Below are positions 27,583 to 28,002 of a DNA stretch of 62,413 nt, one piece after another. The translations under genes were made by a program, and so were the position numbers. The notes under the pieces are model-generated. The model was not told where the DNA came from and made no database searches. It saw nothing but the letters and a program-made list of their open reading frames with translations. The stretch spans positions 184,845 through 247,257 of the forward strand of contig NW_004797706.1 in NCBI RefSeq assembly GCF_000002075.1, written 5' to 3'. Position 1 is the stretch's first letter. Each line of letters opens with the position of its first letter. The stretch comes from Aplysia californica. Taxonomy: Eukaryota.

Positions 27583-27853
27583 GCGCCCTTTGATGTCTGA
27601 TGATCATTGTTGGGTGACCGCCCTTTGGTGCCTGAAGGTCATTGTTGGGTGACCGCCCTTTGATGTCTGATGGTCATTTTTGGGTGACCGCCTTTTGATG
27701 TCTCATGGTCCTTGTTGGGTGACCGCCCTTTGATGTCTGATGGTCATTGTTGGGTGACCGCCCTTTGATGTCTGATGGTCATTGTTGGGTGACCGCCCTT
27801 TGATGTCTGATGGTCATTGTTGAGTGACCGCCCTTTGATGTCTGATGGTCAAT
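27583..27853 (-). repeat. Promoter-proximal 35-bp array of copy C (8 units)
   Basis: CTTTG cores from 27588 to 27833 at an exact 35-bp period. Confidence 0.92.
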
Positions 27854-27967
27854 GCGGCCCGGCGTCTGTGATGTGAACAATGGAAGCCGTGTCAAAGCAA
27901 GGGCCGACAATCGGTGTCGGTGTTTTTGAAGACAAATACCCCTCTTTAGGGGGACGCTTGACGCCAC

Positions 27968-28002
27968 TATAAAAGTGAAGGGGTCTGGAAATTCCTTCAG
28001 TT
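27968..28002 (+). promoter_or_regulatory. Core promoter of copy C: TATAAAA plus Inr TCAGTT
   Basis: TATAAAA at 27968 and Inr A at 27999 (31-nt spacing); ATG 89 nt downstream. Confidence 0.7.

Follow-up and report, generated by a model that had tools for sequence, protein, structure and literature searches.

Variable-number repeats that adjoin a promoter and are preceded by duplicated modules of greater age form a plan familiar from the promoter VNTR enhancers of INS and HRAS1 and from the enhancer repeats of the rDNA spacer. A 35-bp minisatellite in a 62,413-nucleotide stretch of the sea hare Aplysia californica genome (hereinafter the window, i.e., the whole stretch analyzed) resembles these in plan but differs from them in that its distal modules lack a duplicate core promoter. 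A further set of comparable systems comprises coding macrosatellites such as RS447/USP17, CT47 and TAF11-like, in which a multi-kilobase unit has its own promoter and a protein-coding gene, with RS447 present in 20-103 copies (accessible part of PMC5687341). The window likewise holds a multi-kilobase unit with a promoter and an open reading frame arranged head to tail; unlike the RS447 type as portrayed in the accessible part of that source, its gene is a spliced kinase, minisatellite modules are nested within it, and it occurs on several scaffolds and in both orientations, the tandem layout being seen in the window only. A third set comprises the TCF multimer reporters of the TOPFLASH type and the HMG-helper Wnt-responsive modules, which place tandem high-affinity HMG sites before a minimal TATA promoter with a GC-rich word beside each site (accessible part of PMC4154663). 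By sequence, the array shares this arrangement; however, its helper overlaps the HMG site and its units are natural 35-mers with other conserved blocks. In its accessible part, the same source, on the fly, states that natural Wnt modules do not contain densely clustered perfect sites (PMC4154663), and the Hydra Wnt3 and Sp5 promoters are described as having three and five TCF sites, respectively (accessible part of PMC6338789). Because the tests of helper geometry and of the SOX site described below failed, we do not file the array as a TCF multimer reporter. A search of the open literature, with subscription journals outside its scope, returned nothing relevant on the kinase family or the repeat; promoter VNTRs and coding macrosatellites are each known, but a nested combination of the two around a mollusc kinase family that is amplifying and undescribed did not turn up in the literature searched.

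The proximal array (27584..27851, plus strand) consists of 7.7 units of 35 bp with 93% matches in Tandem Repeats Finder, and each proximal unit combines an HMG site of the TCF/LEF type with a GC-rich hexamer that overlaps it and with an inverted GGTCA-N8-TGACC pair. Among its eight unit rows, the 9-bp TCF site is intact in six, ACCGCC in seven and CATTGTT in five. It is bounded by a left flank (27529..27583, plus strand), which differs by 4-8% between paralogues and is the best-kept part over all module types, and by a right flank (27852..27915, plus strand) with a SOX-like AACAATGG at 27876-27883. These are followed by a core promoter predicted from the sequence (27968..28002, plus strand), with TATAAAAG at 27968 and an Inr-like TCAGTT at 27997, 29 bp past the TATA position. 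Such a core promoter was found only ahead of the three sequenced kinase starts, and in all three copies the end of the array lies 114-115 bp from the TATA position, the respective arrays having 8, 4 and 5 unit rows. The initial annotation had near-perfect units ending about 115 bp from the TATA box of each intact kinase copy: the spacing holds in the three sequenced promoters, but one of them, that of the copy at 7200 (copy C), has TATAACAG and no clean TATA, the promoter of a fourth copy, at 33545, is lost to a gap in the assembly, and some near-perfect units are not followed by any promoter (five at 1096-1270 and two at 24479-24537). Its companion claim that distal arrays are more degenerate was borne out, with the TCF site intact in 25 of 30 proximal-type units versus 28 of 93 distal units. 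Taken together, the proposition that a 35-bp repeat with a strong TCF-type site precedes the amplified kinase copies and is kept as part of their promoter appears mostly to hold.

The repeat is organized into modules in which a left flank of ~55 bp and a right flank of ~60 bp enclose 2-10 units, and a kinase copy is preceded by up to four module types separated by AT-rich spacers, namely the proximal one and three distal ones. Upstream of kinase copy A, these distal modules are D1 (26755..27109, plus strand), with seven different old units and a divergence of 5-7.5% from three paralogues whose spacers differ by 13-21%; D2 (26340..26508, plus strand), with two units; and D3 (25481..25857, plus strand), a 66-bp dimer in 4.1 copies. 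Copies are on the minus strand to the left of ~21.5 kb and on the plus strand to its right, with a 6.3-kb period at 93-99% identity in 1.1-12.1 kb and more copies on the other strand. Paralogue B (11032..13390, minus strand) has a proximal module of four units, a TATA at 13093 and three exons, with a small gap in intron 1. Paralogue C (4550..7652, minus strand) has a proximal module of five units, with TATAACAG at 7320; an assembly gap interrupts its exons, and a second piece of exon 1 is present. Paralogue D (32791..34887, plus strand) shows at least five proximal units, a promoter lost in a gap and an exon 1 with a 1-base insertion. A variant 31-bp array (21619..21954, plus strand; 10.8 units, 87% matches), which lacks four bases of the TCF site, sits at the center of the inversion. 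Several rearrangements and smaller repeats accompany these modules: a kinase exon-1 fragment of ~60 bp inside a distal array (1967..2030, minus strand) has short microhomology at both joints, and a second ~60-bp exon-1 insertion (8395-8461), again with short microhomology at its joints, replaces part of another distal array. At 18771, a left flank is fused straight to the 3′ region of the gene, with the array, promoter and kinase deleted, and a matching joint is present in one of the public sequencing runs considered below (X5). A 200-bp AT-rich piece, probably a small mobile element, occurs in intron 2 and, inverted, in a spacer (26143-26340, 29155-29349, 34383-34585; 87% alike). Strand-skewed AT-rich repeats of 14/21/35 bp mark the 3′ end of every kinase unit (3872-3931, 10357-10416, 17995-18126, 35679-35746), and the 44-copy microsatellite at 2115-2202 is an expanded left-flank TG run.

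Copy A of the kinase comprises exon 1 (28088..28690, with the ATG at 28088; Pkinase E-value 6e-27), exon 2 (29023..29135) and exon 3 with the stop codon (29615..29730), all on the plus strand, and codes for a protein of 276 aa. Its closest relatives are 88-97% identical over exon 1, come from Aplysia californica wherever the source is named and lie on several scaffolds, with a wider kinase family at 36-73% identity; a second subfamily (P0010, P0033-P0038), ~56% identical, is also multi-copy in Aplysia. The VAIK lysine (K53), helix-C glutamate (E73), catalytic Asp/Asn (D145, N150) and DFG aspartate (D163) are invariant in all 21 relatives aligned, and the Gly-rich ATP loop is absent in 19 of the 21 rows, being present only in the two most distant. 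The protein is predicted to adopt a kinase fold (pLDDT 93.8), and the best solved relatives are the AMPK-related SIK3 and MARK3 (profile E-value 2e-33, fold TM 0.80), from which the sea hare kinase differs in identity (22-25%), in being a bare 276-aa catalytic domain, in having no Gly-rich loop and in showing HGD in place of HRD. One RefSeq model matches copy A and another copy B; in the copy-A model (P0019, 318 aa), the C-terminal 44 residues are encoded in the D2 module that belongs to the following unit (31579-31710), after a TTTTTAG acceptor inside a repeat unit, which is either real splicing or a prediction artifact. In the accessible tables for adult sensory neurons (PMC7522570), to which the accession link of the models rests on an offset, both models occur in the all-transcript table and neither in the two tables above 1 TPM. 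The supplements of PMC8195618, PMC12937505 and PMC6042401 hold no row for the kinase family.

What the initial annotation overlooked is the apparent amplification of the whole gene unit to tens of copies, as gauged from contig depth. We compared four public runs with positions 26300-30300, using contig depth as a rough proxy that yields no copy number. In run X1, contigs of the spacer, promoter, exons and introns have depths of about 580-810 versus 12-43 for contigs of rarer copies; in run X5, the corresponding depths are about 2500-3300 versus 45-300; and in run X9, most of the unit is present within only 2 million letters of contigs. As a rough ratio, this suggests that a variant differing from copy A by a few percent is present in the genome in about 20-60 near-identical copies, and these apparent, collapsed copies matter for read mapping in the Aplysia californica genome. 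Since none of the 15 joints listed (of 19 across the four runs) skips an intron, the runs behave like DNA and thus yield no evidence of expression. Regarding hallmarks of transposons or viruses, the flanks are not reverse-complementary, no transposase or viral partner was seen, and viral contigs gave no match to the 24-mer searched. A viral relative was also sought by a protein scan, which gave only one generic kinase match at 31%, and all six matches to metagenomes were single stretches of 18-21 bp with no wider likeness, which we took as chance.

The initial annotation read each unit as a composite of a TCF site, an adjacent C-clamp helper and a SOX site. The first element stands up well: against the SCTTTGWWSWW consensus (accessible part of PMC4154663), the HMG site scores 10 of 11, and among 200,000 shuffles of the unit SCTTTGWWS arose in 0.8% and the 10-bp form in 0.11%, this rarity of 0.1-0.8% being post hoc as many other motifs can be read in 35 bases. 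TCF-type sites number 64 in the 34.9-kb cluster versus 3 in the remaining 23.9 kb. The other two elements fared poorly. The helper-like 7-mer agrees with GCCGCCR at five of seven positions and shares 2 bases with the HMG site; on the downstream side another helper follows only after 19 bp, and a short RCCG form lies 1 bp upstream. This departs from the favored geometry of 6 bp upstream or directly downstream (0-1 bp) of the HMG site (accessible part of PMC4154663). CATTGT is found in 21 of 26 proximal units, in 2 of 76 distal units and in none of the 16 distal types, and the SOX columns vary most, so that the SOX site is not a feature of the unit as such; the ACAATG of the right flank, retained in 16 of 23 right flanks, is a better SOX candidate than the in-unit word. 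What remains of the composite is hence a high-scoring, repeated TCF-type site next to a TATA promoter. The same 35 bases could also be read as Sp/KLF GC-box, Gli-like or CTCF-like sites. Two further readings were a nuclear-receptor inverted pair and a Smad GTCT, neither of which stood out in the conservation test. As for a structured RNA, there was no Rfam match in the cluster, and the single-strand DNA fold had a z of -1.9, with 4 of 100 shuffles as good.

The same annotation expected motif positions to vary least. We excised 148 units from 28 stretches, mostly delimited by their flanks and all inside 0.6-37.5 kb, and kept 136 for the column test after dropping 11 from the 31-bp array and one poor row; 22 hand-defined old unit types were used, as automatic clustering (23 types) had chained 59 units together. 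Ten blocks were compared across these old types with uncorrected p-values: the HMG block differs at 0.148 versus 0.239 elsewhere (p=0.024 plain and 0.043 base-matched; 0.055 and 0.098 by a tree-based count), and the HMG plus helper columns form the best-kept block (p=0.008-0.036). By the same measure, the helper alone stands at 0.21 versus 0.216, TGACC at 0.139 is on par with the HMG block, and the SOX columns are the least conserved block (0.287 versus 0.197). The TCF site survives in full in just 6 of 21 old types. Recent changes within types, an independent set, show no such sparing: the HMG block takes 0.271 versus 0.278 (105 changes in 12 distal types), all named motifs together 0.27 versus 0.293 (76 changes; p=0.40-0.45), and the p-values for sparing of the TCF site positions range over 0.44-0.88; of the 23 changes in proximal units, the HMG block received 7, with 5.9 expected. 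The expectation is thus weakly supported among old types (p=0.02-0.10 for the HMG block, uncorrected) and fails for recent changes. At the level of the whole unit, the proximal consensus differs at 2 of 35 positions from the majority sequence of distal units only, as against an average of 21% for distal types (binomial p=0.012), and distal-distal divergence is 0.47 versus a distal-proximal one of 0.28. This closeness hints at slow change of the proximal unit, but is partly expected if the distal units branched off from it at different times. It is the whole 35-mer that is kept, rather than the named motifs, so that the ligand may be a factor other than TCF.

Divergence between paralogues delineates the region to which this conservation extends. 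Modules, promoter and exons differ overall by 2-8%, spacers by 13-23% and introns by up to 38%; in particular, the block from 27490 to 28700, at the end of exon 1, differs by 2-8%, while divergence reaches 14-23% in the upstream spacer of non-sister copies and 33-38% in the introns of A versus B/C, changing abruptly at exon borders. The D1 module with its left flank lies below the spacer divergence in four of five pairs (p about 1e-5), two of the four being near-identical sisters (B and F) and the fifth pair too recent, although G and C columns change faster than T columns. Synonymous sites of exon 1 differ by only 0.06-0.07, with a Ka of 0.03-0.04; exons 2-3 of non-identical copies have a Ks of 0.035-0.054 and a Ka of 0.04-0.09. 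The low Ks of exon 1 implies that gene conversion is at work, and therefore the footprint is not readable as selection alone; conversion could carry a neutral repeat along with the block. In addition, the 113-116-bp exons 2 and 3 are ~95% alike, synonymous sites included, despite introns differing by 33-38%, an exon-tight homogenization.

Our leading account, to which we give close to an even chance, is that the array is a promoter-proximal regulatory block of the amplified kinase family, with TCF as the leading candidate ligand. A unit of 5-6 kb, with repeat modules, a TATA promoter and the three exons of a small gastropod-type Ser/Thr kinase gene, would be multiplying in the sea hare genome; unequal exchange would alter the number of minisatellite units, which varies from 4 to 8, and gene conversion would homogenize the block wherever copies are held alike by selection. 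In a restricted cell type other than adult sensory neurons, a protein of the HMG-box class, most probably of the TCF/LEF type, would bind the repeated site, which would serve the TATA promoter as a homotypic cluster, possibly aided by the SOX-like site of the right flank. Against this, the array may be a neutral minisatellite whose TCF-like word arose by chance in a single ancestral 35-mer and spread by slippage and unequal exchange; gene conversion, to which repeats are prone, would then hold the modules alike and carry them along with the promoter and exon 1. The motif columns have recently changed as freely as the others (76 changes at 0.27 versus 0.293), the 31-bp array expanded to 10.8 units although its TCF site is four bases short, an intact site is retained by no more than 6 of 21 old types, the low Ks proves conversion, and the 0.1-0.8% chance of the site shrinks once other readable motifs are allowed for. 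Yet homogenization stops ~40-90 bp before the array and at the borders of exons, as if following function, the non-repetitive flanks are retained too, and a clean consensus adjoins the promoter in all three sequenced copies, and we regard neutrality as a strong rival, though on the unlikely side. Were it correct, it would show that conversion can mimic a regulatory footprint.

The array may work like a multimerized enhancer, but a Wnt-reporter role goes beyond what the sequence conveys. In its fullest form, this role would be that of a β-catenin-responsive composite of TCF site, C-clamp helper and SOX site, with unit number tuning kinase expression. In keeping with it, a near-perfect HMG site is present eight times, 115 bp from the TATA position, no block is better kept in the old types than the HMG and helper columns (p=0.008-0.036), and redundant sites would buffer single losses, which would leave the test on recent changes little power for proximal arrays. 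Any nearby helper raised TCF affinity in vitro, but the spacings tested were 0-12 bp and the helper here is a 5/7, overlapping match with the next one 19 bp away, outside that range; HMG-only reporters were silent in fly discs (accessible part of PMC4154663). Furthermore, the in-unit SOX word is a proximal-only variant, and the natural Wnt-responsive promoters considered carry 3-5 scattered sites (accessible part of PMC6338789), which leaves the full composite quite improbable in our estimation. A related version, a natural TOPFLASH-like element in which a minisatellite of high-affinity TCF sites would drive a kinase gene specific to the sea hare and amplified to tens of copies, with unit number and gene number together setting β-catenin output in embryonic or germ-line cells, appears unlikely, though less so than the full composite. 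Were the array TCF-driven, it would constitute a naturally occurring multimer reporter and would offer a convenient read-out of Wnt activity in a model mollusc; the TOPFLASH-like version, if true, would be a counter-example to the absence of dense perfect-site clusters in nature. To the modules might alternatively be ascribed chiefly a role as recombination cassettes, i.e., a protein-bound or exchange-prone repeat driving amplification, inversion and conversion with little part in transcription. Rearrangement joints do fall in or at modules (the exon-1 piece in two arrays, the deletion at 18771 and a cut module at 24540), the inversion center at 21.5-22 kb coincides with a module, contigs of the public runs jump between modules, and high contig depth points to ongoing amplification. 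However, joints gather in any dispersed repeat, no transposase or viral partner was seen with the modules, a comparison of their flanks on opposite strands gives no match, and a fixed spacing to the TATA is needless for recombination; we consider this the least probable of these readings, slightly below the full composite.

Elsewhere in the window, a single-exon ORF of 408 aa (55771-56997) has hydrophobic stretches and a proline/glutamine-rich 10-residue repeat, encoded by a 30-bp tandem repeat at 56427-56554, and gave no Pfam match. An ORF of 108 aa (45377-45703), also with no Pfam match, presumably resembles the tail of a retroelement protein. ARAGORN predicted no tRNA genes, and Rfam returned one weak tRNA-like match, outside the kinase cluster, at 53733-53805; this match accompanies a 350-bp repeat present three times (51663-52012, 53455-53808 and 54542-54894), which is likely a tRNA-derived SINE.
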